Assembly: GCA_964452165.1 (NCBI GenBank)
Contig: CAYVKP010000004.1
Span: 5,333 to 69,332 of the forward strand
DNA length: 64,000 nucleotides
Reading direction: 5' to 3'
Origin: an uncultured Gammaproteobacteria bacterium
GTDB taxonomy: Bacteria > Patescibacteriota > Microgenomatia > Levybacterales > GWA1-39-11
The notes beneath the pieces are model-generated. The model ran no database searches and was not told the origin of the DNA. It was given only the letters and a program-made list of their open reading frames with translations. How positions within the stretch are numbered: the stretch's first letter is position 1; every line of letters starts with the position of its first letter. The position numbers and the translations under genes are program-made. This document shows positions 5,856 through 64,000 of the stretch, piece by piece.

Positions 5856-5948
5856 GGAGGGGTCGCATAGCCGGCCCATTGCACCCAACCGTTTTCGGGC
5901 AAGTGTTCCGCTTGACGGAATCCGTACGTTCGAATCGTACCCCCTCCG
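5856..5948 (+). ncRNA. tRNA-like gene (93 nt) with canonical acceptor, D- and T-arms but an aberrant anticodon domain (variant tRNA or tRNA pseudogene)
   Basis: Acceptor GGAGGGG/CCCCTCC (7 bp) with discriminator G. U8. D-stem GCA/TGC with A14 and G18G19 in the loop. T-arm GTACG-TTCGAAT-CGTAC. The 41 nt between the D- and T-arms cannot form a 5-bp stem with a 7-nt loop in the standard register (see findings). Confidence 0.45.
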
Positions 5949-6003
5949 CACGTTTTTACCCTTCACCTTGCCTAAAAATCCCTGACACTGTATTATTAAT
6001 TCT

Positions 6004-51387: not shown

Positions 51388-52725
51388 ATGACCCTCACTT
51401 ACTTTGATTCCGTAGGAATCGTAATTTATCTTTTCATCGCGGCTTTTATTTACAAAAAGGCTTGGTTTTATTCTTTTTATTCATTCTTCAAGTTTATTTT
51501 AGTTTTCATTCTGACGCTTGTCGTAAGTCTTATGCTTGCTGCGCACACCCCAAAACTGCCGCTCACAAAACTTGAGCAGTCCCTAGTTATACAGTGGCTT
51601 CTATTCATAATTTTATGGAGAATTATTTCTTTCAAAACCATTTTTTTTGCCGTAACAGATGGGAAATTCAGCCTAAACAGATTTTTGTTCATGCATCATA
51701 TCGACCGATATATGAGCCTGGCGCCCTCCCTTGTCGCATCTTTTTTCATAACTTTTTCCCTGTTCACAGTGCTTGTTAGCGCAAGTACGGGAAACCTTGC
51801 TCTTCAACGACAAATTGAAACTTCTCAAATTGTTAAACCGCTTTCTTACAAAATTTATTTTGCAGCCGCATCAACCGGCGCAAATCTTTTTCAGGGCGTT
51901 GCATACAAACTTACACCGGTTTATGAGCCGACTAATCAGGTTGCTCCTGTTCCACAAAATTATGAGGCCGTTAATTCTTTCAAAGAAAAGGTTAACGAGC
52001 AAAGACAAGATATTGGTCTTACCCCGGTTGGAGATTTGGGAACTTTTATACCTACTAACGTTTATGTTTCCCCCAACGGAGCAGCTCCAGACAACGGAGC
52101 ACCCACGCCTGTCCAAGTTGACACTCAAATATTCGTCCCGGCGCAACTACCAAGTCCTACCCCAACTCCTTTCCCAACGCCAACGTTGGCGAGCCAACCC
52201 AACCAGCAATTTCCTATCTTTCCAATCGCAAATCCCTTCCAACAAGCTACTCAACCCCAACAGCCCACCCCAACATCTGCTCCTGCACCAACAGAAGAAC
52301 CCGCCCATTCCTTCACTATTCCCTTTGTTGCTCCCCAGGCAGATATCTCACAGGCCGAGCAGGACATTCTGAGATTAACGAATCAACAACGAGCGCAAAA
52401 TGGCTTAGGGCCACTTACAATTGATCCTGCAATTTCAGCAGTTGCACGCGCTCATAGCCGGGACATGTCAGTAAGAGGTTTTTTTGACCACATAAATCCT
52501 GACGGACTCTCCCCTTTTGACAGAATGAGAATTGGTGGAATTTCTTTCACAACTGCCGGCGAAAATATTGCGGGCGGTCCAACATCCGATATCATTATGA
52601 CTAACTGGATGAACTCTCCCGGACACCGTGCCAATATTTTGAGGAATACTTTTGGAAGAATCGGAATTGGAGTCGTTCAGGACTCAACCTACGGACTCAT
52701 GGCCACTCAGGACTTTGCAAATTGA
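51388..52725 (+). CDS. Membrane-anchored CAP/SCP (PR-1-like, YkwD-type) domain protein
   Basis: C-terminal HSRDMSVRGFFDHINPDG ... NIAGG ... WMNSPGHRANIL ... IGIGV; N-terminal TM helices and a Pro/Gln-rich linker. Confidence 0.65.
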   Translation: MTLTYFDSVGIVIYLFIAAFIYKKAWFYSFYSFFKFILVFILTLVVSLMLAAHTPKLPLTKLEQSLVIQWLLFIILWRIISFKTIFFAVTDGKFSLNRFLFMHHIDRYMSLAPSLVASFFITFSLFTVLVSASTGNLALQRQIETSQIVKPLSYKIYFAAASTGANLFQGVAYKLTPVYEPTNQVAPVPQNYEAVNSFKEKVNEQRQDIGLTPVGDLGTFIPTNVYVSPNGAAPDNGAPTPVQVDTQIFVPAQLPSPTPTPFPTPTLASQPNQQFPIFPIANPFQQATQPQQPTPTSAPAPTEEPAHSFTIPFVAPQADISQAEQDILRLTNQQRAQNGLGPLTIDPAISAVARAHSRDMSVRGFFDHINPDGLSPFDRMRIGGISFTTAGENIAGGPTSDIIMTNWMNSPGHRANILRNTFGRIGIGVVQDSTYGLMATQDFAN

Positions 52726-52796
52726 CATTTATTTGAACCTTCAAAATAGTTAATTGTCACATGTCAAAGGCGTTCTTCCTTGATATAATTTAATTA

Positions 52797-53255
52797 ATGA
52801 AGGTTCATAGGATTGTAATCGAACACATTCAACACGCCCACAAAATCAACAAACTTTCCCACCTTATAGTTCTCCTGAGTTTTCTTACAACTTTCGTTGT
52901 TACAAGGATAGTAGTTGGACTTCAAAATACAAATCTTCTCCCGACACCCCAGATTCAGCCTCATATTCACCACCTTGTCCCTGGAATTATTTTACTTTTG
53001 GTCGCAGGATACTTAGCAATTGCTTTCTGGGAAAATAAAAAATTTCATCTTTACATGTCGGCGCTTTTTGGAATTGGCTCGGCACTAACTCTTGACGAAT
53101 GTGCATTGTGGTTTTATCTCAGGGATGTTTATTGGGAAAAAGGGAGATTCGGTTTTGATGCTATAGTGATTGTGGCGACCTTGCTCTTTGTTACTTATGT
53201 CGTAGGCGAAGTTCACGCTTCAAAACGCCGGGCGGAAAAAAATGAAGTTTTCTAA
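52797..53255 (+). CDS. Membrane protein (152 aa)
   Basis: 4 TM helices. Confidence 0.45.
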   Translation: MKVHRIVIEHIQHAHKINKLSHLIVLLSFLTTFVVTRIVVGLQNTNLLPTPQIQPHIHHLVPGIILLLVAGYLAIAFWENKKFHLYMSALFGIGSALTLDECALWFYLRDVYWEKGRFGFDAIVIVATLLFVTYVVGEVHASKRRAEKNEVF

Positions 53256-53269
53256 TTGGCTTTTGCTTT

Positions 53270-54013
53270 TTGTTTGTTATAAAATGCCATATGGAAGAAA
53301 AAACCGGCGAAACAAAAGTCGAGACCGTTGAACACAAAACTGAACCCCCAATGAATAAAAAAGATCCTTTTTCGATTGTAGGGAAAGTTGCGGTCCTCTT
53401 GATAGTTGCTGCTCTTCTTGTTGGCGGCGGACTTTATCTTGGCAAAAGCATGAATAAAAATTCAAATTCGAACAATTCCGTAATGCCAAGCCCAACAGTA
53501 GAACAAGCAATGGAGGAATCGCCAACCGCCTCTCCCACCCCTTCAACAAGCTCGGGGCAGGCGCAAATGAAAACTGTTGTTGCCGGGCCTGCAAAAGGGA
53601 CAAGTTTTGGAGCTTACTCAATCGATATTCCAAGCGGTTGGACTGACAAACACGAAGTAACTGACATAACAGACAAGCTCACTATCACAAAAGGGGCGTA
53701 CGAGCTTTCAATTTACCAGGCGCCAATTGGAGGCGGAGGATGCCGCTACCCTGGACAATCTGATGCTCCAATGTCACAAAGATTTACGGAGTTTAAGGAA
53801 ATAGATGGAACAACTGGAAACATGATAAGAAGCTGGAACAAAACTGGAAATCCTGCGGGACAGATTGTCTACACGATTTGTCAGGGCGGAATCGGAGACA
53901 TATCCAGCTCCCCAACCTCATTTGGTGCTATCTCTGCAAAGTCTCCTGACCCGGCGGACGCGGCAACAATGAAAGATATTGATTCTATGATCTCCTCCAT
54001 CACCACAAAGTAG
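53270..54013 (+). CDS. Anchored extracytoplasmic protein (247 aa)
   Basis: TM, Ser/Pro linker, beta-rich C-terminal domain. Confidence 0.45.
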   Translation: MFVIKCHMEEKTGETKVETVEHKTEPPMNKKDPFSIVGKVAVLLIVAALLVGGGLYLGKSMNKNSNSNNSVMPSPTVEQAMEESPTASPTPSTSSGQAQMKTVVAGPAKGTSFGAYSIDIPSGWTDKHEVTDITDKLTITKGAYELSIYQAPIGGGGCRYPGQSDAPMSQRFTEFKEIDGTTGNMIRSWNKTGNPAGQIVYTICQGGIGDISSSPTSFGAISAKSPDPADAATMKDIDSMISSITTK

Positions 54014-54016
54014 AGC

Positions 54017-54253
54017 TTAAGACTGTCTTTTTTCGTGTCTTCTAATACCCATTGTTATATCTGCAAATATTATTCCACCCTTCTCCTTGAATATCTGCTC
54101 AACATTTTGTCTTCTCTGAGCTTGCAAATGAGCGAATGCTGCTTCTTTCTGGTTTAATTTTTCCTGAGTTATGATATTGAACGGGGTTTCGCTTGAAAGT
54201 CTAATGTCCGTTTTGGGATCGAGTTTTATAGCTTTTTGCTTCTCGGGTCTCAC
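54017..54253 (-). CDS. Small hypothetical protein (78 aa)
   Basis: AT-rich ORF; last host-like gene before the compositional shift. Confidence 0.3.
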   Translation of the reverse strand: MRPEKQKAIKLDPKTDIRLSSETPFNIITQEKLNQKEAAFAHLQAQRRQNVEQIFKEKGGIIFADITMGIRRHEKRQS

Positions 54254-54360
54254 GAGATCATTATATCATTAGGATCAAACTCGCCTGAATTACCCTAACT
54301 TATTATTATCATATACAGATTGGGGCAAGCTTATAGTTATTGCTACTCTACCCTCATTTT

Positions 54361-54526
54361 TGATATAATTTTCGTCTAGTTTCCCGGAGGTGACACAACC
54401 TCGGCATTTGCTTGCCGAAAAAGTGTCCTCTGAGACACTTTTTTCCTTCCAAGACGGAAGAGTCGACGAAGCAATTTGCAAGCTTTTGTTCGAAGCCAAG
54501 TCAAAAGAAGGTCGCACCTGAACAAT
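54361..54526 (+). promoter_or_regulatory. Regulatory cassette copy A: extended -10 (TGaTATAAT, 54361-54369), hairpin GTGTC-ctctga-GACAC plus T6 (54424-54445), conserved tail ...GGTCGCACCTGAACAA
   Basis: Read directly; homologous to copy B at 61849-62018. Confidence 0.55.
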
Positions 54527-54597
54527 CCGGGAATTAACATTTTTTAAAAAACTTTAAACAATTATTAGCTCGCACGATACTGAAAGGAGGCGGTCCC

Positions 54598-55107
54598 ATG
54601 ACGACAATTCTACTTCTGGTACTTGCGGGCATAGCAATCATCGTGATTGCTCGTTTCGCAGTATTACGCAAGAATAAATCCAAGCCTCAACCCATTGTCC
54701 ACGAGGTGGACGATCGTAACTGGGAGGAAGATATCGAAAACTTTATGGATACTGCTCTCAAAAGCAGCACGCTTGTTACGCATCTTCATGCTCAGTGGGA
54801 ATTCGCCCACAGACGGATGATAGCAGGGGGTGTATCCAAAAAGTTCGATCTCAAGCTCGGCGAAAAACCTGAGTGGATGACTTGGCCCGACATGCTCGTG
54901 GTCCAAGAAGGAGATCGATTTGACGTCAACGCATACTTCAAGCGCGCTAGGATCGGCGATGAATTAATCGTCGTTAACCGACGTGTCAGAATATTCGCGC
55001 TTCGCCGCCGTAAACAATACGGCTTTCGCGATGACGAGATAACTGTCCGCCGTCCCTACGCGGGAGATTTTCCTTACTTACTTGGTCCCTACAAGGCTAA
55101 GGATTAG
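54598..55107 (+). CDS. Island ORF 1: membrane-anchored hypothetical protein (169 aa)
   Basis: AGGAGG 7 nt upstream; N-terminal TM; GC-rich. Confidence 0.5.
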   Translation: MTTILLLVLAGIAIIVIARFAVLRKNKSKPQPIVHEVDDRNWEEDIENFMDTALKSSTLVTHLHAQWEFAHRRMIAGGVSKKFDLKLGEKPEWMTWPDMLVVQEGDRFDVNAYFKRARIGDELIVVNRRVRIFALRRRKQYGFRDDEITVRRPYAGDFPYLLGPYKAKD

Positions 55108-55140
55108 ACCGCGAAAGCGGATCCTCACGAAAGGAGGAAC

Positions 55141-55476
55141 ATGGCTTATAAGCCCAGATACGGATTGTCGCTAGAGGCTGAAGTTTGGGCATTTGCCATG
55201 CTTGTCATCCTCTCGATCGTGTTGCTCTGTGCGGTTATTTTCACTCTACTCGCCTATCAGAATCGCATCTCCGAAGAACGGGCCCTGCCTGTGCTTCGTC
55301 AGATCGCGAAAACCGAACGCGTGTATGTGACAAGCCACACCAACAACATACCGATCACCGGGCATCCGGGCGACGTTACATTCGAACTCACTGTAGACGG
55401 AAAGCAAGCTCGTGGCCACTGCACTAAGTACGACAAGGGCAGAAAGGTTACATGCACGCTTACCTACTACGAGTGA
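55141..55476 (+). CDS. Island ORF 2: membrane-anchored hypothetical protein (111 aa)
   Basis: AGGAGG RBS; one TM. Confidence 0.5.
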   Translation: MAYKPRYGLSLEAEVWAFAMLVILSIVLLCAVIFTLLAYQNRISEERALPVLRQIAKTERVYVTSHTNNIPITGHPGDVTFELTVDGKQARGHCTKYDKGRKVTCTLTYYE

Positions 55477-55512
55477 CTAGCAAGCGCATCAAGCGCGGGA
55501 GGAAACAGACAC

Positions 55513-55752
55513 ATGAATCGCATTTCCGATCCCGATAAGAAGTTTCCGGCACTCGCGGCCCAAAAGAAAAAGCCGCTGCTGGACGCCATCAAGGCCAACT
55601 TCACTCAGGATGAACTCGAGAGAGTTCTGAAAGACAGAAGCCGAACGATCGAAGTAACTATTCTGCTTGGAAACAAGCTTGGTAGTACCGCGACCGCAAC
55701 GGTGAGTCTTGACAGAGAAGACTTAGAGCGTAGAATAGCTCGAAAGTCATAG
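55513..55752 (+). CDS. Island ORF 3: hypothetical protein (79 aa)
   Basis: GGGAGGA RBS. Confidence 0.45.
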   Translation: MNRISDPDKKFPALAAQKKKPLLDAIKANFTQDELERVLKDRSRTIEVTILLGNKLGSTATATVSLDREDLERRIARKS

Positions 55753-55764
55753 CGCGGAGGAAAC

Positions 55765-56223
55765 ATGGAAACAAAGACGATTTCGTTCCAGCTGACCCAC
55801 GGCACGGCCGAGGTCTGCTACTACGTCAACGGCTACGGTGTTTACTTCACTGTGGTGACCAAGGGAGCTTCCCCTGTCATCCATGCGAAGAGCATCATCG
55901 AAGCCATCAAGGAGGACAACGTCGAGATTCAGCTCTGGCCCCGTCACTACACGTTCTACTGCCTGCAAACGCGGCGGTCGAACGAATATCGCGAGAAAGG
56001 CTATTTCTGTCTCGACGAGCTCTCCACGGAATATCACGGCGCGTTCCCGTTCCTAACGTGGAAACCAATCGCGATGTCCGAGGGAGAGAAACGCTTACGT
56101 AGCGAGGACACCATTCGTAAGGTGAGACCGCTTCGCAAGCACGTGAGAGAGGCATTCGCCAACTTCCTGGAGGAAGAAGAGAACGAGCCTCTACCCAAAC
56201 GGGATTGGCAACCACCGCACTAA
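55765..56223 (+). CDS. Island ORF 4: hypothetical protein (152 aa)
   Basis: GGAGGA RBS. Confidence 0.5.
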   Translation: METKTISFQLTHGTAEVCYYVNGYGVYFTVVTKGASPVIHAKSIIEAIKEDNVEIQLWPRHYTFYCLQTRRSNEYREKGYFCLDELSTEYHGAFPFLTWKPIAMSEGEKRLRSEDTIRKVRPLRKHVREAFANFLEEEENEPLPKRDWQPPH

Positions 56224-56247
56224 ACGCGGAAGAAAAGGAGCATCGCC

Positions 56248-56412
56248 ATGGAACCCCGCGAAAAAGAGAACAACCGACCGTTGCACAAGAAGATTTCGAT
56301 CTTCAACCTGATTTGTGCAATCGTGTCGATTACGCTCGCAGCATACCTGCTGATTCCGCGGATATTTTCTCGTCCCGAAAGCGACGAAGATAAACCTCCC
56401 GGTGGTAAATAA
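56248..56412 (+). CDS. Island micro-ORF: 54-aa single-TM peptide
   Basis: AAGGAG RBS; ISIFNLICAIVSITLAAYLLIP TM; below the 60-aa track cutoff. Confidence 0.35.
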   Translation: MEPREKENNRPLHKKISIFNLICAIVSITLAAYLLIPRIFSRPESDEDKPPGGK

Positions 56413-56480
56413 GCCCACCGAAATCAACCCATCAACTCTCGCTCGCAAGCGGGATACAAACACAACGAGGAGTAACAACG

Positions 56481-56837
56481 ATGAACTTCTTCGACCCCAG
56501 GGACAGCAGGACAGCACGATTCCGGGACTCGGAGGACGACGGTCAAAGCCCGCAGGCCCGACCTCGCACCCCGCGATCCGGAAACGCGATCAAGGAGCCG
56601 ACTCGCGCCGAAAAGATTCGGGCGATACTCGTGTTCTACACGAGAGGCGAACTCCAGACCATGTTCGAACGACTCCAAGCAAGAGGAAGTCGCACTAAAA
56701 GCGTCGAGATTGCGCTGGTACCATGGATTGGAACTGATCCGGGTGGCGGTGTGAACTCGCGGAAGGTCTCACTATCCCGAAAGGACTTGGAGCGAATCCT
56801 GAACGGCCAATGGATGGCAGGTTCAGTCCGAGGTTAG
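56481..56837 (+). CDS. Island ORF: basic hypothetical protein (118 aa)
   Basis: GAGGAG RBS. Confidence 0.45.
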   Translation: MNFFDPRDSRTARFRDSEDDGQSPQARPRTPRSGNAIKEPTRAEKIRAILVFYTRGELQTMFERLQARGSRTKSVEIALVPWIGTDPGGGVNSRKVSLSRKDLERILNGQWMAGSVRG

Positions 56838-56874
56838 GATACAAGACGGCTTTACCCCGCCGAAGGAGGCAATC

Positions 56875-57105
56875 ATGCCAGAAGACCGAGCAAAGGCTTG
56901 GATTCCAAGCGCAGAACTCGCTGGGGAAAACCTCGATGAGTATCTGAGCAAAGTCCCTAAAGGATCGGAAGTCCAATGCTGGAGCGCTGCTCAAATCACC
57001 CGAGTCTACACTTCTCGTCATTACAGGGTTCGCGACTTGCGAAGTCACATACCCGACAAGAAGGAGCTTGAGGAGCACGCCAAGCTGAAGGACAAAGCAT
57101 CATGA
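56875..57105 (+). CDS. Island ORF: hypothetical protein (76 aa)
   Basis: AAGGAGG RBS. Confidence 0.4.
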   Translation: MPEDRAKAWIPSAELAGENLDEYLSKVPKGSEVQCWSAAQITRVYTSRHYRVRDLRSHIPDKKELEEHAKLKDKAS

Positions 57106-57254
57106 AGACCGCAGGCCAAAAGGCGCTTACCGGTATCAAAATCCTGGTGGAAGTTGCGGTAGCAGTCTCGGCGGCACTAGTCGTCTTGGCTCTACTCGAT
57201 TCCATCATGGATGACGAGGCCGAAGAACGCCAAACCGGCACCTACGGAAAATAA
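57102..57254 (+). CDS. Island micro-ORF: 50-aa single-TM peptide (ATGA-coupled)
   Basis: Start overlaps the upstream stop (ATGA); ILVEVAVAVSAALVVLALL TM. Confidence 0.3.
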   Translation: MKTAGQKALTGIKILVEVAVAVSAALVVLALLDSIMDDEAEERQTGTYGK

Positions 57255-57291
57255 CCAGCGCTAGTGCGCTAGGAAAAGAAAGAGGACAACC

Positions 57292-57702
57292 ATGCACGTT
57301 GAAATCACGGCCACTGTCGCTCAGTGGTTCTACGACAATTATCGCGAAAAAGCGCTGTTCGACAACCTACGGGAAGCATGGCAACAAGCTGTCACTGACA
57401 AGCTGATTCATTCCAAAGACGAGTACGAGGTAGCAACCACCTTCCTACCCGCCAGCCTAAGCGCCGGTCGGCTTCTATCACTCAAGATAGACTGCTACGG
57501 AGTGTGGCCGTTCATGGCGGGCACCGGATTCATGGAGCACCTTGGAAGAGTTACCTCGGACGCGGTCCGAAGATACCATACGGGCTCCAACAGCCTGAAG
57601 ATGAGGGTGATAGTCGAGTCTCACCGTGAGGCAACAGTCGCACCCAACATCCCGCTCGAACTCGCTGAACCCGTCACACAGGGCAATCCTGAGAAAGGTT
57701 AA
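57292..57702 (+). CDS. Island ORF: hypothetical protein (136 aa), paralog of 58122..58538
   Basis: AAGAGGA RBS; MHVEITATV... is similar to MYVKITAEV.... Confidence 0.5.
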   Translation: MHVEITATVAQWFYDNYREKALFDNLREAWQQAVTDKLIHSKDEYEVATTFLPASLSAGRLLSLKIDCYGVWPFMAGTGFMEHLGRVTSDAVRRYHTGSNSLKMRVIVESHREATVAPNIPLELAEPVTQGNPEKG

Positions 57703-57754
57703 ATCGCGGTGCGCGGTTACCTAACGATCCCGCCTAGTTAGAAGGAGAATTCTC

Positions 57755-58108
57755 TTGGAGATCGATGTCTGCACCACTAAGTCCGGACGCTGCGTCCGCT
57801 ACCGCGCGTATTGGGCAAGCCGGGAATTCACGGACCTTTTCTTCCAGTGGGGAGAGGAGTTCCGGGATACCGACAGCGTCGACGTCAGCGAGGCCATCGA
57901 GGCAATCGTTGTGTCTGCGGGAATTGGGATTCATGATTACCAGTTCCTACAGGTCCTACCTGCCAGCGACCCCCGCCTAGCTCTGGTGGCATATATGGTG
58001 GTGGTCCAACAAGGGCCGCAAGGCATCATCGCTACGCGAACGAAGGAGGGACATTCAGTCCCTGCGATGGTCGTGAGCGAATTTCTGGCCAGCGTCGACG
58101 CGGCCTAA
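57755..58108 (+). CDS. Island ORF: hypothetical protein (117 aa, TTG start)
   Basis: AAGGAG 7 nt upstream of the TTG at 57755. Confidence 0.45.
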   Translation: MEIDVCTTKSGRCVRYRAYWASREFTDLFFQWGEEFRDTDSVDVSEAIEAIVVSAGIGIHDYQFLQVLPASDPRLALVAYMVVVQQGPQGIIATRTKEGHSVPAMVVSEFLASVDAA

Positions 58109-58121
58109 AGAAGGAGACAGA

Positions 58122-58538
58122 ATGTACGTCAAGATCACGGCTGAAGTGGACCGTAACTTCGTCAAGGCCCTGGGCGAAAACGACTTCATCCGGCTAAACG
58201 CAGGACTGATAACCAGCTGGAAAAGCGCCGTCGCAAAGGACTTCGGAATCCACACCGGAGACATCGACGCATCCATGTTCGAAGTCTACGCGTTCGGCGG
58301 ACAGCTCATGACGATCACGGTCCAACGAATCCTGTCTGTTGTCGGTGACGAAGACTTTGCAGACAGTCACGCCAAGCTGGCAGAAGTGCTTGAGAAGGAA
58401 ACCGCAGGGATCCTTCAACCGCACATGCCTGAGAGAAGAAACAGCACGGTCATGGTTATCATCGACCCGTTGCTCATTGCTCATGTCCACAAACTCGATG
58501 TCCGCAGCTGGTCCGCGGAGGGCGTCAGAGTCAACTAG
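58122..58538 (+). CDS. Island ORF: hypothetical protein (138 aa), paralog of 57292..57702
   Basis: AAGGAG RBS. Confidence 0.5.
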   Translation: MYVKITAEVDRNFVKALGENDFIRLNAGLITSWKSAVAKDFGIHTGDIDASMFEVYAFGGQLMTITVQRILSVVGDEDFADSHAKLAEVLEKETAGILQPHMPERRNSTVMVIIDPLLIAHVHKLDVRSWSAEGVRVN

Positions 58539-58574
58539 CCGGCCCCTTGGCCGAGAAACCGAAAGGTAACGAAC

Positions 58575-59444
58575 ATGGCAACAACTTACAAAGAGCCCGT
58601 TCGTGTGGGCATCAACGGTTTCGGCGACGTGGGGCGATGGGCCTTCCACGAAATCCGCGATCGATATGGCGAGCAGATCAAGGTCGTCGCCATTAACGAC
58701 GCCGACATAGAAACCGACCGGGAAGTAATCATGGCGGCACTTCTCGCGCGCTACCAGGGTGAACTCCCTTCCTGGCTCAACTACAACAGCCACGGCGGAC
58801 TGTCGGTTGACGGCGTCTACGTCTGGCTTTCAAGCTGGGACAAACCCGAGTTAATCCCTTGGGACAACTACGGAGTCCAGATCGTCGTTGACTGCACGGG
58901 CAAGTTCTCGAGCCGCGACAAGGCTTTCCGTCACTTGCACGGTGGTACCGTAGTCAAAAAAGTCATCTGCGTGATGCCGGCAGAAGACATGGACATGCTG
59001 GTCAGGGTGGGGACTGATCACATGCTTTACAAGCCGGAGAGCCAACACCTGATCGGCCAGGACATGGGCGGCATGAGCACCTCCCGTGAGTGCGGCGAAA
59101 ACCTCGCTCACCTGACGGCACTCGTGGCAAGAAAGGGATGGGAACCAATCCCTGTCATGTCGCGACCAAGCGATTACACCACGACATACCCAACGGTGTT
59201 GACGGGCTCTTTCGGGAGTGGGGAAGGCGGAAAACCCCCGATGGCGACTTGCCCAGTCGACGATGAACCCCTCGTCGCTACGCTGGAGTTCGACGGCTTC
59301 GAGTTCATATGCGTAGTCTGCGATGAGAAGTACGGCTTCTTCGCCCCCAAACCGGCGACGTGGACCCAAGAGCTACAGACTCGGTACGACGAGCTGCAGG
59401 AAAGATACCTGGCAGAACGAGAAAAAAGACAAGCCGGCTCGTAG
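58575..59444 (+). CDS. GAPDH-derived NAD-binding pseudo-enzyme with C-terminal Cys-rich (zinc-ribbon-like) tail
   Basis: VRVGINGFGDVGRWAFHEI...KVVAIND matches the GAPDH GINGFGRIGR...IVAIND. Collinear through DNYGVQIVVDCTGKFSSRDKAFRHLHGGTVVKKVICV (cf. DEVGVDVVAEATGLF..HITAGAKKVVMT). Active-site SCTTNC is replaced by STSREC, so the catalytic Cys is lost. C-terminal CPVDDEP...ICVVCDEKYGFF. Confidence 0.55.
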   Translation: MATTYKEPVRVGINGFGDVGRWAFHEIRDRYGEQIKVVAINDADIETDREVIMAALLARYQGELPSWLNYNSHGGLSVDGVYVWLSSWDKPELIPWDNYGVQIVVDCTGKFSSRDKAFRHLHGGTVVKKVICVMPAEDMDMLVRVGTDHMLYKPESQHLIGQDMGGMSTSRECGENLAHLTALVARKGWEPIPVMSRPSDYTTTYPTVLTGSFGSGEGGKPPMATCPVDDEPLVATLEFDGFEFICVVCDEKYGFFAPKPATWTQELQTRYDELQERYLAEREKRQAGS

Positions 59445-59481
59445 CAAGCTGCCCTGACTTACGTCGGAGAAGGATAAAGAG

Positions 59482-59757
59482 GTGGTATCCGAAGACTCTG
59501 GGGACAGTCGCAGCTTCACCATAAATGACGGACCTGATACGGAGGTGGAAAACAGGATCCGTGCAACACTTCTTGGGATTAGACAAAGAGGACTCAAGGG
59601 CTGCTGGCTCTTTATTCCTCCTCGTCTCGAGAAGTTGGCGCAAGACACGCGCAAAGATCTTGAGATGACGACGTGGGAGGCATCGTTCTCCTATCTACCG
59701 GGAACCAAGCGGGAGAAACCCGAGCAAGATCAACCAACGGAGGGAGGTGAAGAATGA
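59482..59757 (+). CDS. Island ORF: hypothetical protein (91 aa, GTG start)
   Basis: SD-like AGGATAAAGAGG upstream. Confidence 0.4.
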   Translation: MVSEDSGDSRSFTINDGPDTEVENRIRATLLGIRQRGLKGCWLFIPPRLEKLAQDTRKDLEMTTWEASFSYLPGTKREKPEQDQPTEGGEE

Positions 59758-60221
59758 GAACTAACACTAGCGCGATCCTGTTCACGGGAACGATCGACGC
59801 ATGCTGCGTATACCTGGCTTATTCGGGAATGAAAACCCCGTACCGGCCGGAGCCCTTCCTAACAGCAGCAGTAGTCAGCGCCCTGTTTGGTTACCTGACA
59901 GGCAAAATGCTCGTCGTGGAGCAACCCTCTAACGGAGACCACGCTGATTGGATGGGCCTAGCCGCTCTGGTCACGATGATCCTCTGCTGCTTGGGAGCCC
60001 TAGCATTGCTGCGATGGCAACCTTTCAGCGAGCTCAAGCTGACCATCATGGAGACCGTCTTTTGGTTTACGGGACTTGCCCTGTGGCCGATTGCGGGTTT
60101 CCTGATCACCGACGCCAAGGTTATCACCGACAACAACAGGAGGAAGACGGATGAAGCTACTGCTTACGGGAGCTGTGCTCGGCCTCATGACAGCCCTGTT
60201 CATCTCCATCGGCAAAACTGA
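59754..60221 (+). CDS. Island ORF: polytopic membrane protein (155 aa; C-terminal 35 aa dubious)
   Basis: ATGA-coupled start; GGAGG RBS; 4 TM helices; the tail overlaps the micro-ORF at 60151. Confidence 0.45.
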   Translation: MRTNTSAILFTGTIDACCVYLAYSGMKTPYRPEPFLTAAVVSALFGYLTGKMLVVEQPSNGDHADWMGLAALVTMILCCLGALALLRWQPFSELKLTIMETVFWFTGLALWPIAGFLITDAKVITDNNRRKTDEATAYGSCARPHDSPVHLHRQN

Positions 60222-60258
60222 GAGCAAGCAGCCCGTCAACGCTGCTATGACAATGTGA
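60151..60258 (+). CDS. Island micro-ORF: 35-aa TM peptide overlapping the previous gene's 3' end in another frame
   Basis: AGGAGG 7 nt upstream; MKLLLTGAVLGLMTALFISIG. Confidence 0.25.
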   Translation: MKLLLTGAVLGLMTALFISIGKTESKQPVNAAMTM

Positions 60259-60268
60259 GGAGAACGAC

Positions 60269-60997
60269 ATGAGCAACGATTGGCGTAGCCAAGCAAGGCG
60301 ACAACAAGGCCGTCCGCGCCGCGTAGAACCGGCTCAACCGGCAGACGCGCAAGCGCCTGAACAAACCGAAGGCCTGGCCTTCGAAGACACGACAGTGTTC
60401 GAGGAACACGACACTAAGCCAGACCAGACCGAAGGGCCTGTCTTGGCAAACGCACTCGAGTGCGACATCGTCGAAGCCGATGACAAGGTCCACGTCTTCG
60501 TAGAGGACGCGGAGACTGACACGTCCTACGACAGACTGGAGGAACTGATCGCAGGAATTCCTGACGAATCTGGCCACATCGTCGTGGTCTACAACAACGT
60601 CCAACGAGGCACAGCTCTCAACCTCGCCAGGCAGTTCGGTCGCAAATGGCCATTGGACGTGGACATTCGCCCACGACCACTCAAGGCAGTCGACCCATCT
60701 GACAATAAGGTCCACTACCTGGACTCTGGCGTCACAATAAGAGGCAACGCGTACGGCCCTCTGACTGACATCATCAGGACGATTCCGGATGAGGAAAGCC
60801 ACACGCTCTTCGTCAACAACATCGTACAGCGCGGTATCGCTGTCGCTGTTGCGATAGATCTCGGTCGTAAGCATGACCTAGACGTCCGAGTCCGCCCAAC
60901 GGAAGGCGAAACCTTGCGTGAAGCGGCAGAGCAAGCGGGTCTGACAGTCGGCGTCGAGATCGATTCGAAAGACGGTCTTACCAACCCGCTCAACTAG
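60269..60997 (+). CDS. Island ORF: acidic protein (242 aa) with tandem duplicated about 85-aa domain
   Basis: IPDESGHIVVVYNNVQRGTALNLARQFGRKWPLDVDIRPRP and IPDEESHTLFVNNIVQRGIAVAVAIDLGRKHDLDVRVRPTEG repeats; GAGGAG RBS. Confidence 0.5.
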   Translation: MSNDWRSQARRQQGRPRRVEPAQPADAQAPEQTEGLAFEDTTVFEEHDTKPDQTEGPVLANALECDIVEADDKVHVFVEDAETDTSYDRLEELIAGIPDESGHIVVVYNNVQRGTALNLARQFGRKWPLDVDIRPRPLKAVDPSDNKVHYLDSGVTIRGNAYGPLTDIIRTIPDEESHTLFVNNIVQRGIAVAVAIDLGRKHDLDVRVRPTEGETLREAAEQAGLTVGVEIDSKDGLTNPLN

Positions 60998-61054
60998 TAG
61001 AAATCTGAGAGGTCGAAGTTCGACACTCCAGTGAAGTTAACAAGGAGAACACGG

Positions 61055-61561
61055 ATGACAATTCAAGTTTCACCTGCGCAGCACGCTGCCGACGCCGTGA
61101 AGTTCTGGGCCACCCACATCCTGGGTATCATCAACGCCTCTGATGGTCGTCTCTACGGCGCCCGCGTGCTTGTGGTTCACAGCGATGAGCCCATCGAGAA
61201 GCGCGACGCTCCGGACAAGGAGAAGACCGCGGAAGGCCTGGAGAAACTCATCGTTCTCGAATGGACGCTGGGCGAGGAAGACGCCGACTTCAACAAGCAA
61301 GCTCGGAACAGGGCCCTTCGTTCTTACCAGAACGGCCGGCCAAGCCGAGAAGATACGGGACAAGGCCCAAACGATGCAGGACAAGGCCCCGGCGCCATTA
61401 TCACAGATGAATACGACATCGTCTCCGTCTGCGGTCTTGGCTTTACCGGCAACGAACCCGTCGCAACGCGCATCGGCGAGCGCATTTCTTATCTGAGGGC
61501 GCAAGCCGCTGGCAACACCAAAGTAGCTGGCAGCAGCGATAAGGAAGACGGCGCCAACTAA
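61055..61561 (+). CDS. Island ORF: hypothetical protein (168 aa)
   Basis: AAGGAG 8 nt upstream of the ATG at 61055; the track start at 61031 is an upstream GTG. Confidence 0.45.
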   Translation: MTIQVSPAQHAADAVKFWATHILGIINASDGRLYGARVLVVHSDEPIEKRDAPDKEKTAEGLEKLIVLEWTLGEEDADFNKQARNRALRSYQNGRPSREDTGQGPNDAGQGPGAIITDEYDIVSVCGLGFTGNEPVATRIGERISYLRAQAAGNTKVAGSSDKEDGAN

Positions 61562-61848
61562 TTCCCGGAGCAACACAACTGAATATCAGGTGCGGAAACA
61601 ACGCTAAGACGATCTGATCGATCGAAGCGTTCGCGGAAGAGATGCGAGATATGTATAGTGTAGGAGGCTCACGCCTTTCTACTTTAGTCAATTAATTTTG
61701 ACATATACCTCTACCTCCATCTCTTCCGCCCACACCATAAATTTGAAAATCTAAACTTAAATTTACAATTTTTAATTATTTCTTCTTATCAATCCAGAAT
61801 ATAATCTTCGTACTAAATTCTTACTCTTTTGCGACGTGGATTTCCTTT

Positions 61849-62018
61849 TGTTATAATCCAGATCAAGTAGTTCTCTGTGACGGCGCGAATCACGACTTTT
61901 GCTTGTCTTGATATAGTGCCCCACAACGGGACACTTTTTTCTTTGGAAGACGTGACGTCCAGAAGCAAACGCAAGCTTCAAAGACTACTCGCCTGAAGAA
62001 GAGATCGCACCTGAACAA
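61849..62018 (+). promoter_or_regulatory. Regulatory cassette copy B: -10 boxes (TGtTATAAT 61849-61857; TTGATATAGT 61907-61916), hairpin GTGCCCC-acaac-GGGACAC plus T6 (61916-61940), conserved tail ...GATCGCACCTGAACAA
   Basis: Read directly; sits in a roughly 500-nt AT-rich non-coding gap inside the GC-rich island. Confidence 0.55.
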
Positions 62019-62056
62019 AAGGAACTTATACAAATTCATGGAAGGACGGTACCCTC

Positions 62057-62347
62057 ATGGCACGAATAAAAACCGTTCTTGTTGCTGACAACGACATACC
62101 TGGTGACTACGTCATCTTCCCAATTCGTTGGGTCTACAAAATCGACCCCATGCGAGGACAGGAAGTTGACGCGGCCGTATTACTCGGTCTCACCAATTTG
62201 GTCAACGGTAACAAACGTAAGATGATCTATTCCACCAGGAAGAGAGACGCCCAACGAATGAAGAGGCGAATCGAAAGCCTAGCGAGAAAAATCCCACCTA
62301 GGAGAAAACGGAGAAGGAGGAAAGAAGAAACTCAACCCGCCAACTAA
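62057..62347 (+). CDS. Island ORF: hypothetical protein with Arg/Lys-rich tail (96 aa)
   Basis: First gene after cassette B; C-terminal PPRRKRRRRKEE. Confidence 0.45.
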   Translation: MARIKTVLVADNDIPGDYVIFPIRWVYKIDPMRGQEVDAAVLLGLTNLVNGNKRKMIYSTRKRDAQRMKRRIESLARKIPPRRKRRRRKEETQPAN

Positions 62348-62370
62348 ACCAACAGGAGGAGGACACGAGC

Positions 62371-62580
62371 GTGACGAACAGCGGTTACGAATATGACGAC
62401 GAGCGTCCTAGAGAGGATCCACCTCGCCAACCTTTTGGTGGCGCCGTGAGACCTAAGAATCGCAGACCGGTTGGTGATAGCCAATCCGGCATTTTGGCCG
62501 ACCCGGACTGCGAGGACTGCGACGGTTCAAGTGTCAACAAGTACACAGGCCAACGCTGTCACTGCACTCGCAACATCTAG
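62371..62580 (+). CDS. Island ORF: small Cys-rich protein (69 aa, GTG start)
   Basis: AGGAGGAGG RBS; DPDCEDCDGSSVNKYTGQRCHC. Confidence 0.35.
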   Translation: MTNSGYEYDDERPREDPPRQPFGGAVRPKNRRPVGDSQSGILADPDCEDCDGSSVNKYTGQRCHCTRNI

Positions 62581-62626
62581 TCCCGCTCGAAAGAGCTTTC
62601 AACCCAACATGGGAGGAGGTGATGAA

Positions 62627-62749
62627 ATGAACACAACGGCGAGTAAGTTCGTCCAGAGACACTGGATCAAGATCGCGATCTTCGCGTCCTTGGTTTGGAT
62701 GCTCTCGGGTATCGGTAAGTATTTCGACGGCTCACCGCCTTCGAACTAG
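62627..62749 (+). CDS. Island micro-ORF: 40-aa single-TM peptide
   Basis: GGGAGGAGG RBS; WIKIAIFASLVWMLSGIG TM. Confidence 0.3.
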   Translation: MNTTASKFVQRHWIKIAIFASLVWMLSGIGKYFDGSPPSN

Positions 62750-62798
62750 GGATTCCATCAACTAACTACTGGCACGATTCGATTCGGAGGGAAGATCC

Positions 62799-63065
62799 TT
62801 GAAGCAGCAGAGGCAGACAGAGCAGCGGTATCAAGGTACCACGCGAGACAGATCTCGCAGTCCACAACCGCAGCAACCTGCCCGAAGCGCTATCAGGATA
62901 CCCGACCACCATTTCAGCGAAGAGCTGGATAGAGCCCTGATTCAGGTGAAAAGGACAGGCGTTCCGCTTGTCGTAAAGACCTACGAGCAGGAAATGGAAG
63001 CCAGAAGGAGGGCTAGAGAGAGGTACGGAATCACCGGCACCATAGACGTTACCGTCAAGGGTTAA
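62799..63065 (+). CDS. Island ORF: hypothetical protein (88 aa, TTG start)
   Basis: GGAGGG 7 nt upstream. Confidence 0.4.
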   Translation: MKQQRQTEQRYQGTTRDRSRSPQPQQPARSAIRIPDHHFSEELDRALIQVKRTGVPLVVKTYEQEMEARRRARERYGITGTIDVTVKG

Positions 63066-63123
63066 TCCCCAACACGAGCGTCATCAACCCAACTACTGGG
63101 AGTTCACATGGAGGAACCACGAG

Positions 63124-63366
63124 TTGAAACAAGATACACGAGACCACGCCCCTGGTGAAGACTGGTACATTGGACCGGATCTTCTGGACTGGCCAAGACG
63201 CATAAAGAGCATTCTGGCTAAGGTCAGCATCAGGCTCGGCGAACATGTCTACGTGTCTCAAGAACCACACCAGCTAATGGACGTGGTCCTGGAGGAAGCC
63301 AAGTCCTTCCCCCACCTGATAGAACACGACCGAATCCATTCCGCTCCTGCCCAAGTCGCGGCATGA
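63124..63366 (+). CDS. Island ORF: hypothetical protein (80 aa, TTG start)
   Basis: GGAGGA upstream. Confidence 0.35.
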   Translation: MKQDTRDHAPGEDWYIGPDLLDWPRRIKSILAKVSIRLGEHVYVSQEPHQLMDVVLEEAKSFPHLIEHDRIHSAPAQVAA

Positions 63367-63418
63367 GCACCGTATCAACCATCAACCCAGACCCCTGGGA
63401 AAAGGAGTAGCCCCCGCC

Positions 63419-63736
63419 ATGACGCAAACAGTAGTAGAATTTCACGACGCCTTCAGCATGAAGGAGGTCAAGCTCCGGGGTTGTCCAAAAGGATGCAAGC
63501 ATCCCAAGGCCGGCACCATCGAGCCCGACACTGAGTTGACACCCAACAACTGTGAGTACATCCAGATGTACCACGATCACATCGACTGCGGTGCCAACTT
63601 CGTCGTGATGCCCACGGAGGGAGTCGAGCGAGTGAAGTCAGCCTTCCTGCCCGACGTCGAGTATCGACTCGTCCCACACCCTCTGCTGGCCCAAGCAAGC
63701 GATCAACTGCCGACGGCAACGAGTCCGCTGGCATGA
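63419..63736 (+). CDS. Island ORF: hypothetical protein (105 aa) with C-x3-C and C-x..C residues
   Basis: AAGGAG RBS. Confidence 0.4.
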   Translation: MTQTVVEFHDAFSMKEVKLRGCPKGCKHPKAGTIEPDTELTPNNCEYIQMYHDHIDCGANFVVMPTEGVERVKSAFLPDVEYRLVPHPLLAQASDQLPTATSPLA

Positions 63737-64000
63737 CCACGGCAACAACGTCTACCGCGCTGGTCGACGAGATCGTCAAACAACACGTCCGAGTGTACAT
63801 ACGGCGCCAAGCCAAGCGCAACACGCCGTGCGGTTACATTCTCGGAGAGCCGATGCGGACGATAGGACCTGTGACCCTTTACGTATGTGGTCGCTGTGCA
63901 CCGATTCTTCCGGTCGACGCCATTTTCGGCTTGATTGACGACCCGGACACCGCTCTGCCCGAGGATCTTGACCTCGAGTTTGAGTTAATGCCGGTACACC
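63734..64000 (+). CDS. Island ORF, 3'-truncated by the window end (ATGA-coupled)
   Basis: ATG overlaps the upstream TGA; the ORF is open to position 64000. Confidence 0.4.

Follow-up and report, generated by a model that had tools for sequence, protein, structure and literature searches.

Genomic context of the two cassettes

The 64,000-nt stretch of DNA analyzed here, referred to throughout as the window (contig CAYVKP010000004.1 of assembly GCA_964452165.1, positions 5,333 to 69,332 of the forward strand), is bacterial chromosome of ~41% GC that carries a penicillin-binding protein, ArgRS, Obg and tRNAs. From ~54,600 to the window end it consists of a 55% GC block, hereafter the island, with ~22 small, closely packed open reading frames (ORFs), all of them on the + strand and separated by gaps of at most 68 nt except for one of 495 nt. 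The only two sizeable non-coding regions of the island, 54254–54597 (39.8% GC) and 61562–62056 (40.8% GC), are occupied by two diverged copies of a ~200-nt unit, cassette A (54340–54533) and cassette B (61829–62026), which are the subject of this study. Each cassette heads a run of genes in the same orientation. Gene block 1 (54598–61561, +) follows cassette A and comprises 16 co-directional ORFs at 55% GC with gaps of no more than 68 nt, almost all without a family assignment in family scans, the first of which encodes 169 residues. Gene block 2 (62057–64000, +) follows cassette B, comprises at least six co-directional ORFs, the first encoding 96 residues, and continues past the window end, the source contig being 75.7 kb long. 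The original prediction, made from the bare sequence, had the first gene of each block beginning 72 nt (A) and 39 nt (B) downstream of the copy, which is correct; it had also described both copies as AT-rich islands in GC-rich DNA, which holds for B, whereas A sits at the boundary between the ~41% GC DNA and the 55% GC block.

A duplicated non-coding unit

Local alignment of the intergenic regions pairs 54358–54525 with 61846–62018 at a score of 35 (z about 16), against a null of 11.3 ± 1.5 with a maximum of 18 in 500 dinucleotide shuffles, and a profile hidden Markov model (HMM) built from the copies finds exactly two matches in the window. The two aligned copies first reported at this locus are thus real. 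They agree at 75% of alignment columns, with indels, and are old duplicates. The conserved unit extends from about −15 to +160 relative to the predicted transcription start site (TSS), and is nearly all transcribed sequence. It includes GACACTTTTTTC-TT--AAGACG, common to A and B at constant spacing, and an invariant 14-nt tail, TCGCACCTGAACAA, found at 54512–54525 (+) in A and at 62005–62018 (+) in B. Six-frame translation of both copies revealed no frame on either strand that is both open and conserved, and the unit is therefore non-coding.

Searches for further copies were largely empty. No Rfam 15 family overlaps the cassettes at the gathering score, and each copy gives only noise matches at E ≤ 10. 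DNA-pattern scans returned 34 matches in genome contigs and 33 in metagenome contigs, all of them chance, and five scans of viral contigs returned nothing real; a marginal profile match in L007 was rejected as a further copy, being an unrelated coding region. The family of cassettes is very rare, and comparative statements about it rest on three sequences. Two candidate identities were discarded. With two copies in the window and no true ones in the genome, metagenome and viral scans, the unit is not a dispersed repeat such as a miniature inverted-repeat transposable element (MITE); the strands that pair its ends also differ between copies (UUCCCGGA/UCCGGGAA in A, AGUUCU/GGAACU in B), unlike the shared terminal inverted repeats of a MITE. 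A retron non-coding RNA (msr-msd) would share the closing helix described below, but the downstream 169-aa and 96-aa genes have neither a reverse transcriptase domain nor any Pfam match.

An orthologous cassette in a related organism

The third sequence was reached through the 169-aa protein encoded after copy A, for which 5.8 billion protein clusters contain just one relative, P0002, at 61% identity. P0002 is encoded on L038, a 1.7-kb Joint Genome Institute (JGI) contig, and an orthologous cassette, A′, lies upstream of it, with a TTGATA-17-TGgTATAAT promoter, a hairpin, a degenerate U-run (TTATCTTT), a 3′ module and the tail TCGCACCTTTACAA. At its far end, L038 encodes the C-terminal part of a protein homologous to the CAP-domain protein of the window (78% amino-acid identity), and the cassette and the first island gene therefore have the same chromosomal neighborhood in a related metagenomic organism as in the window. 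The original prediction had made its case depend on additional copies and compensatory changes: the orthologous A′ exists, and the stems differ between copies yet still pair.

The genes between the CAP-domain gene and the cassette are unrelated in the two genomes, with ORFs of 152, 247 and 78 aa in the window (52534–54340) versus one 180-aa ORF on L038 (1–800), and the two sequences become homologous again only some 48 nt before the predicted start. This arrangement implies either an old island passed on by vertical descent or the targeting of one site by related elements.

Promoters

A near-consensus sigma-70 promoter with an extended −10 precedes all three copies, with spacers that differ. 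Promoter A (54340–54369, +) reads TTGCTA-18 nt-TGaTATAAT, matching the consensus at 10 of 12 positions with the TG present, and promoter B (61829–61857, +) reads TTGCGA-17 nt-TGtTATAAT. The TGnTATAAT box noticed earlier in both copies is accordingly part of a full promoter with a −35. The TSS was predicted 7 nt after the −10. The earlier assignment of TTGATATAGT as B's counterpart of the −10 of A does not hold, since this is a second −10-like box (61909–61918) inside the hairpin region that is not aligned with A's −10.

Three further observations concern transcription signals near the cassettes. The second box of copy B, on the + strand, is itself of extended −10 type, and lies inside the long hairpin, while A and A′ have nothing corresponding to it; transcripts initiated there would start within the small hairpin described below and bypass the terminator. 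An AT-only near-palindrome, TTAACATTTTTTAAAAAACTTTAA (54534–54557, +), lies between the last paired strand of copy A and the ribosome-binding site; B lacks it, and A′ has a shorter form. By direct reading, no sigma-54, extracytoplasmic function (ECF) or second sigma-70 promoter conserved in spacing was found in or after the tail, and a Frpo-like single-strand promoter was rejected, the promoter region having no long inverted-repeat partner.

The 5′ module ends at a U-run

Leaders were folded from the predicted start to the U-run. In A, A′ and B, this segment forms a long imperfect hairpin of 62–72 nt and about −25 kcal/mol, ending at the U-run, with the same four-tier architecture despite differing stem sequences. 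In copy A the hairpin occupies 54378–54439 (+), starting at position +3 of the predicted transcript and reaching the first U of the U-run, with a minimum free energy (MFE) of −25.1 kcal/mol and a z-score of −3.94 (1/1000 shuffles). In copy B it occupies 61865–61936 (+), with an MFE of −24.8 kcal/mol and z −3.33 (4/1000), the minus strand reaching a z of only −1.75; for A′, z is −3.37 (2/1000 shuffles). The first nucleotides of the transcript (AGUU..) pair with the 3′ strand of a small terminator-like stem (the 5′ terminus with GACACU in A; AAGU+GUUCU/GGGAC+ACUU in B), the next segment with the loop of that small hairpin (CGGAGG/CCUCUG in A, GGA/UCC in A′, UGUG/CACA in B), and an upstream box with its 5′ strand (ACAC/GUGU in A, GGUAC/GUGCC in A′, GGCGC/GUGCC in B). 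The apex is a small hairpin, UCGGCA/UGCCGA with loop UUUGCU in A and AUCA+GAC/GUC+UGAU with loop UUUUGCUU in B. The 5′ limit of the structure stays at +2/+3 when the folded segment is lengthened upstream by up to 20 nt, and with 30 nt the hairpin is lost in A′. In A′ and B, the fold is clearly better on the + than on the − strand, owing to 3–4 G-U pairs.

The original prediction had seen only the small terminator-like hairpin followed by T6. This hairpin is present in both copies: in A at 54419–54444 (+; AAAAGUGUC/GACACUUUU, T6 at 54439–54444; −11.1 kcal/mol, pair probability 0.997 in the full-length domain) and in B at 61915–61940 (+; AGUGCCC/GGG-A-CACU, T6 at 61935–61940; −9.0 kcal/mol). It is, however, one alternative fold of the 3′ arm of the much longer hairpin. 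In the short RNA, the two folds are iso-energetic in A, and the small hairpin is 7–10 kcal/mol worse in A′ and B. Both end at the U-run, so that a stem-loop followed by a U-rich tract on the transcribed strand, as expected of an intrinsic terminator, is found in A and in B; a simple terminator scanner missed both, because of an A/U stem extension in A and a bulge in B. Because a stem abuts the U-tract in either fold, we read the 5′ module as a putative intrinsic terminator, close to the promoter, whose action would yield a short hairpin RNA. The upstream box was considered as a classical antiterminator, given that it pairs with the terminator 5′ strand plus loop in all three sequences, and was rejected: in the extended fold, too, a stem directly precedes the U-run.

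The read-through leader and its predicted closing helix

Beyond the U-run lies a 3′ leader module followed by the tail. In copy A the module (54446–54511, +) contains a CUUCC/GGAAG hairpin (54446–54460), a UCGA+GAAGC/GCUUU+UCGA hairpin (54463–54493) and the purine tract AAAAGAAGG; in copy B (61941–62004, +) it contains a GUC+GAAGC/GCUUC+GAC hairpin (61957–61985) and the purine tract GAAGAAGAG. In the MFE structure of the full leader, in all three sequences, the long hairpin is replaced by a closing helix, P1, that joins the 5′ arm to the segment right after the tail. The predicted P1 strands of copy A lie at 54381–54388 (+) and, directly after the tail, at 54526–54533 (+), with a P1 probability of 0.86; the 5′ strand is shared with the long hairpin and would act as a switch strand. 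In copy B the predicted strands lie at 61869–61874 (+) and 62021–62026 (+), supplemented by UGU/ACA (P1 probability 0.93), and in A′ the helix is an 11-bp extension of that of A. The P1 state is favored over one that retains the long hairpin by 4.2 (A), 8.4 (A′) and 3.0 kcal/mol (B), with pair probabilities of 0.86–0.96, and RNAalifold applied to an unbiased MAFFT alignment recovers P1 with two pairs changed on both sides. P1 encloses the apical hairpin and the small hairpin, along with two more hairpins that persist although their sequences differ; one outer stem, for instance, is UCGA/UCGA in A and A′ versus GUC/GAC in B. The tail is partly unpaired only, and differently in each copy, so that pairing leaves its invariance unexplained; this suggests sequence-specific recognition.

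A near-copy of the tail lies elsewhere in the island. GCGCCTGAACAA, at 60353–60384 (+), 84 nt into a 242-aa ORF, has one mismatch to the tail and agrees with copy A at 14/16 positions including the following CCG; about 0.02 such matches are expected on the + strand of the island and about 0.3 across the whole window. A GC-rich hairpin of 7–8 bp (CCGAAGGCC-UGG-CCUUCG) follows directly 3′ of it. In the frame of the ORF the near-copy encodes APEQ, and the cassette tails would give the same peptide in one frame.

Selection between A and A′

The A/A′ pair allows conservation to be judged against a neutral benchmark, the 4-fold degenerate sites of the adjacent gene, 50% of which are identical between the window and L038. 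The P1 3′ strand together with TTAACA is identical at 14/14 positions (computed), the P1 5′ strand TTTCCCGGA is likewise identical (by reading the two sequences), the stretch from the U-run to AAGAC is 81% identical, and the copy A 3′ module is about 77% identical to its counterpart. Inside the 5′ hairpin, and in the DNA before the −35, identity stays near the gap-inflated baseline, and the promoter hexamers are retained while the spacer is not. Because identity exceeds the benchmark in P1, in the 3′ module and between the U-run and AAGAC, and because hexamers but not spacer are kept, this segment-specific pattern argues for a function in the transcribed region, not for mere recent duplication.

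A proposed terminator and leader gating two operons

We favor, at slightly less than even confidence, a reading in which a promoter-proximal intrinsic terminator and the leader behind it gate both operons, releasing a short RNA, with the read-through leader refolding around P1. Transcription would start at the near-consensus promoter with its extended −10. The first 62–72 nt would fold as the long imperfect hairpin at the U-tract, or their 3′ arm alternatively as the small hairpin; either fold would set a stem before the U-run and cause promoter-proximal intrinsic termination, yielding a short hairpin RNA of about 65–75 nt. Polymerases that read through would transcribe the conserved leader of about 85 nt, with its two hairpins, purine tract and invariant 14-nt tail, after which the segment right behind the tail could capture the 5′ arm as P1, and the leader would refold into a closed multi-hairpin domain before the first gene. 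With the same unit in front of both operons, one signal could gate the two, the level of read-through being set either by a factor recognizing the invariant sequences or by a fixed leakiness of the terminator. P1 itself could serve to stabilize the mRNA, to display the tail or to influence termination further downstream.

Several points weigh against this proposal. The transcription start and the termination at hairpin and U-run are predictions, and the regulation of read-through and a binding partner of the tail are presumed. With three sequences, two paralogs and one ortholog, covariation is anecdotal, the helices being shifted by indels, and the folding energies of the whole leader are unremarkable (z −1.1 and −2.3). 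Both folds of the 5′ module leave a stem beside the U-run, with no classical antiterminator structure, and P1, as modeled, would form only after the terminator has been passed and so could not control it in cis. The U-tract of A′ is degenerate (UUAUCUUU), so that termination may be weak there. A regulator is also missing from view: known regulator families gave no match to any of the island's ORFs within the window or to a divergent ORF of 78 aa on the upstream side of A. This ORF (54017–54253, −) diverges from promoter A, the position held by the repressor gene in phage immunity regions, and its only match, the N-terminal coiled coil of GreA/GreB, is insignificant (E 0.06).

The type of control is most likely ordinary and familiar, and the RNA itself previously undescribed and very rare, on the strength of computation with three sequences. 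If the proposal holds, the cassettes represent an undescribed leader RNA motif, without an Rfam family, that co-ordinates two long island operons, and a further example of promoter-proximal termination control outside model phages; A and B would also provide an experimental handle on an otherwise opaque element. Given the familiarity of such control, the gain would be incremental unless the switch proved to be factor-independent or ligand-sensing. That bolder version, which would place the cassette in a new class of self-contained RNA switches acting in cis, either riboswitch-like or a put-like antitermination RNA, seems to us distinctly unlikely. In it, the 5′ arm would toggle between the terminator long hairpin and the P1-closed leader, and a ligand or factor reading the invariant tail or the apical loop would set read-through for the two operons of a ‘dark-matter’ island.

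Alternative explanations

Small RNAs acting in trans: The cassettes could instead be genes for trans-acting small RNAs (sRNAs), which we consider unlikely, although much of the 5′ module would suit them. The product would be the terminated hairpin RNA of ~65–75 nt with its conserved apical loop, pairing with targets elsewhere or with its own read-through leader, and the operons would merely lie downstream; phage P4 CI RNA or P1 c4 immunity offers a likeness. A short regulatory RNA had been raised as an alternative in the original prediction, and it fits the stretch from the predicted TSS to the U-run, which forms a single, statistically stable, long bulged hairpin with a U tail. This is the typical shape of antisense or immunity RNAs. 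The apical loop UUUGCUUG is moreover conserved at 8/8 positions between A (54409–54416) and B (61899–61906) while the stem differs. In A′, however, the loop reads AAAGCAAG (L038 868–880), a difference that a small inversion at the tip of the hairpin could account for (AAGCAA against UUGCUU, the reverse complement), and complementarity of the loop to the translation-initiation regions of 22 island genes or to its own downstream leader shows no excess, 84–420 of 300–500 shuffled loops doing as well. Selection is strongest past the terminator (P1, 3′ module, tail), a pattern for which a free-standing sRNA gene does not account, and direct reading of A, B and A′ shows no conserved second promoter between terminator and gene. 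A complementarity of the loop with the conserved blocks GAAGCAA/GCAAGC, noted by eye, was discarded as no better than that of shuffled loops; duplexes between the 5′ and 3′ halves are significant in A′ only.

Processive antitermination: We leave a small chance to a site of nut/boxA or put type, at which the tail, with or without the neighboring hairpins, would load host Nus factors or an island factor onto RNA polymerase, so that the long GC-rich operons would be transcribed without Rho termination and the two copies would act like nutL/nutR or putL/putR. The arrangement is suggestive, with one copy shortly after each of the promoters that drive the two long operons and an invariant sequence of 12–14 nt that pairing does not explain. 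In gamma-proteobacteria the boxA consensus is GYTCTTTAANA, and combined mutation of C4 and T6 abolishes function (PMC5725501). The tail GCACCTGAACA agrees with 7/10 specified positions in A/B and in A′, C4 and T6 included, and so falls short of this gamma-proteobacterial consensus; no rRNA leader, which would carry the host's own boxA, occurs in the window. A match of 7/10 carries no significance once the post-hoc choice of the motif is considered. The loops of the hairpins vary from copy to copy (CCUCUGA, CUUCCAA, CCACAAC), leaving no boxB-like conserved loop; no N, NusG-like or other antiterminator family occurs among the island ORFs in the window; Rfam gives no match; and the terminator upstream of the site would be unexplained. 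The first gene after B does encode a small protein with an Arg-rich segment. This 96-aa protein (62057–62347, +) has a strongly Arg-rich C-terminal half (RKRDAQRMKRRIESLARKIPPRRKRRRRK), with no family match and no homologs among the 5.8 billion clusters, and its AlphaFold model is unusable (predicted local distance difference test, pLDDT, 43).

No RNA function: There is a slim chance that the cassette is a duplicated promoter/operator or small repeat, kept at the DNA level, for example as repressor operators, or merely by recent common descent. The invariant tail might just as well be bound as DNA, three sequences underlie the apparent structure, and the copy A hairpin is equally stable on the minus and plus strands. 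Yet A and B, as old duplicates, keep the same fold through different stem sequences; G-U pairs favor the + strand fold in A′ and B; conservation between A and A′ is far above the neutral benchmark in specific segments; and the conserved unit is almost entirely transcribed. Its presence in two copies in the window and none in public collections also sets it apart from a dispersed repeat.

A Q/qut-type switch: The mechanism first proposed for the locus, a lambda pR′-tR′/qut switch, in which a Q-like DNA-binding protein loads on polymerase paused near the promoter and carries it through the terminator, is very improbable: although a strong promoter is followed by hairpin and U-run within about 70 nt, and both A (TAGTTT) and A′ (TAAGTT) have a −10-like TANNNT near +2 to +7, this pause element is ambiguous, as the hexamer of B (TAGTTC) lacks the key T6, the −35/−10 spacer, the expected place of a Q-binding element, is not conserved between A and B, the ~85 nt under selection behind the terminator are left unexplained, and Pfam, PHROGs and NCBIfam scans of the ~20 island ORFs in the window yielded no Q, N, NusG/RfaH or repressor family, the 168-aa ORF directly upstream of promoter B being without a match and its AlphaFold model (pLDDT 39) unusable. 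Nor are qut sites known to occur twice per element or to be followed, past the terminator, by ~85 nt under selection. What stands of the original proposal is the promoter, the hairpin with its U-run, the conserved leader and the co-directional blocks; for the Q-like or repressor protein that it suggested seeking elsewhere in the element, the island ORFs in the window gave no family match.

The island beyond the cassettes

The same family scans gave no match for any island ORF in the window apart from one 289-aa protein (58575–59444, +), the sole one with a family assignment, which has a GAPDH-type NAD-binding N-terminal domain (Pfam PF00044, E 1.6e-16; phrog_21942). This domain is fused to an unrelated C-terminal half with Cys motifs (CPVDD...CVVCDEKYGFF); a scan of viral contigs queried with this protein found no relative. 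The ~20 visible island proteins have almost no relatives among the 5.8 billion metagenomic protein clusters, and the protein encoded after copy B has none. The concatenated island proteome had no tblastn match in 50,697 phage or 72,556 plasmid records, and DNA searches were likewise empty. Because the ORFs lack family matches and these searches returned nothing, the type of this foreign, otherwise unrecognizable island cannot be assigned from them. Within block 1, two pairs of ORFs are weakly similar, one of 79 aa (55513–55752) and 118 aa (56481–56837; BLASTP E 6e-5) and one of 136 aa (57292–57702) and 138 aa (58122–58538; BLASTP E 0.011), which suggests internal gene duplication within the island.

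Far from the island, at 5856–5949 (+), ARAGORN calls a 94-nt ‘tRNA-???’ with a two-base anticodon (gt), for which the Rfam tRNA model gives no report at the gathering score.

Comparison with known systems

Three groups of known systems invite comparison with the proposed terminator and leader. With lambda pR′-tR′ and its 6S RNA and Q, the cassettes share a strong, constitutive-looking promoter, a promoter-proximal terminator that would yield a short RNA, and a downstream operon in need of read-through. Unlike that system, they show no detectable Q protein or Q-binding element and occur twice per element, not once; their terminator lies at about +45 to +70, versus about +194 in lambda, and is followed by ~85 nt under selection, predicted to re-pair with the 5′ end.

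Lambda nutL/nutR (boxA+boxB) and HK022 putL/putR resemble the cassettes as two diverged copies of an RNA element just past the two promoters of two long operons in one mobile element, with a short invariant single-sequence motif beside hairpins. The differences are that the tail reaches only 7/10 boxA positions, that the loops are not conserved and offer no boxB equivalent, that no recognizable N-like protein or Rfam family match is found, and that the terminator lies inside the element here and downstream in nut/put.

Finally, the leader-encoded immunity RNAs (phage P4 CI RNA, P1/P7 c4) and the antisense-controlled attenuators of pT181/pIP501 type resemble the cassettes in producing a short, stable long-hairpin RNA from the untranslated leader of an operon and in having a 5′ segment with two alternative partners in the same leader. 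Unlike these systems, the cassettes have no significant loop complementarity to leader or gene starts, and no counter-transcript promoter was found in them; the order of the partners, with the terminator arm first and the P1 strand later, also misfits the pre-emptor/terminator logic.

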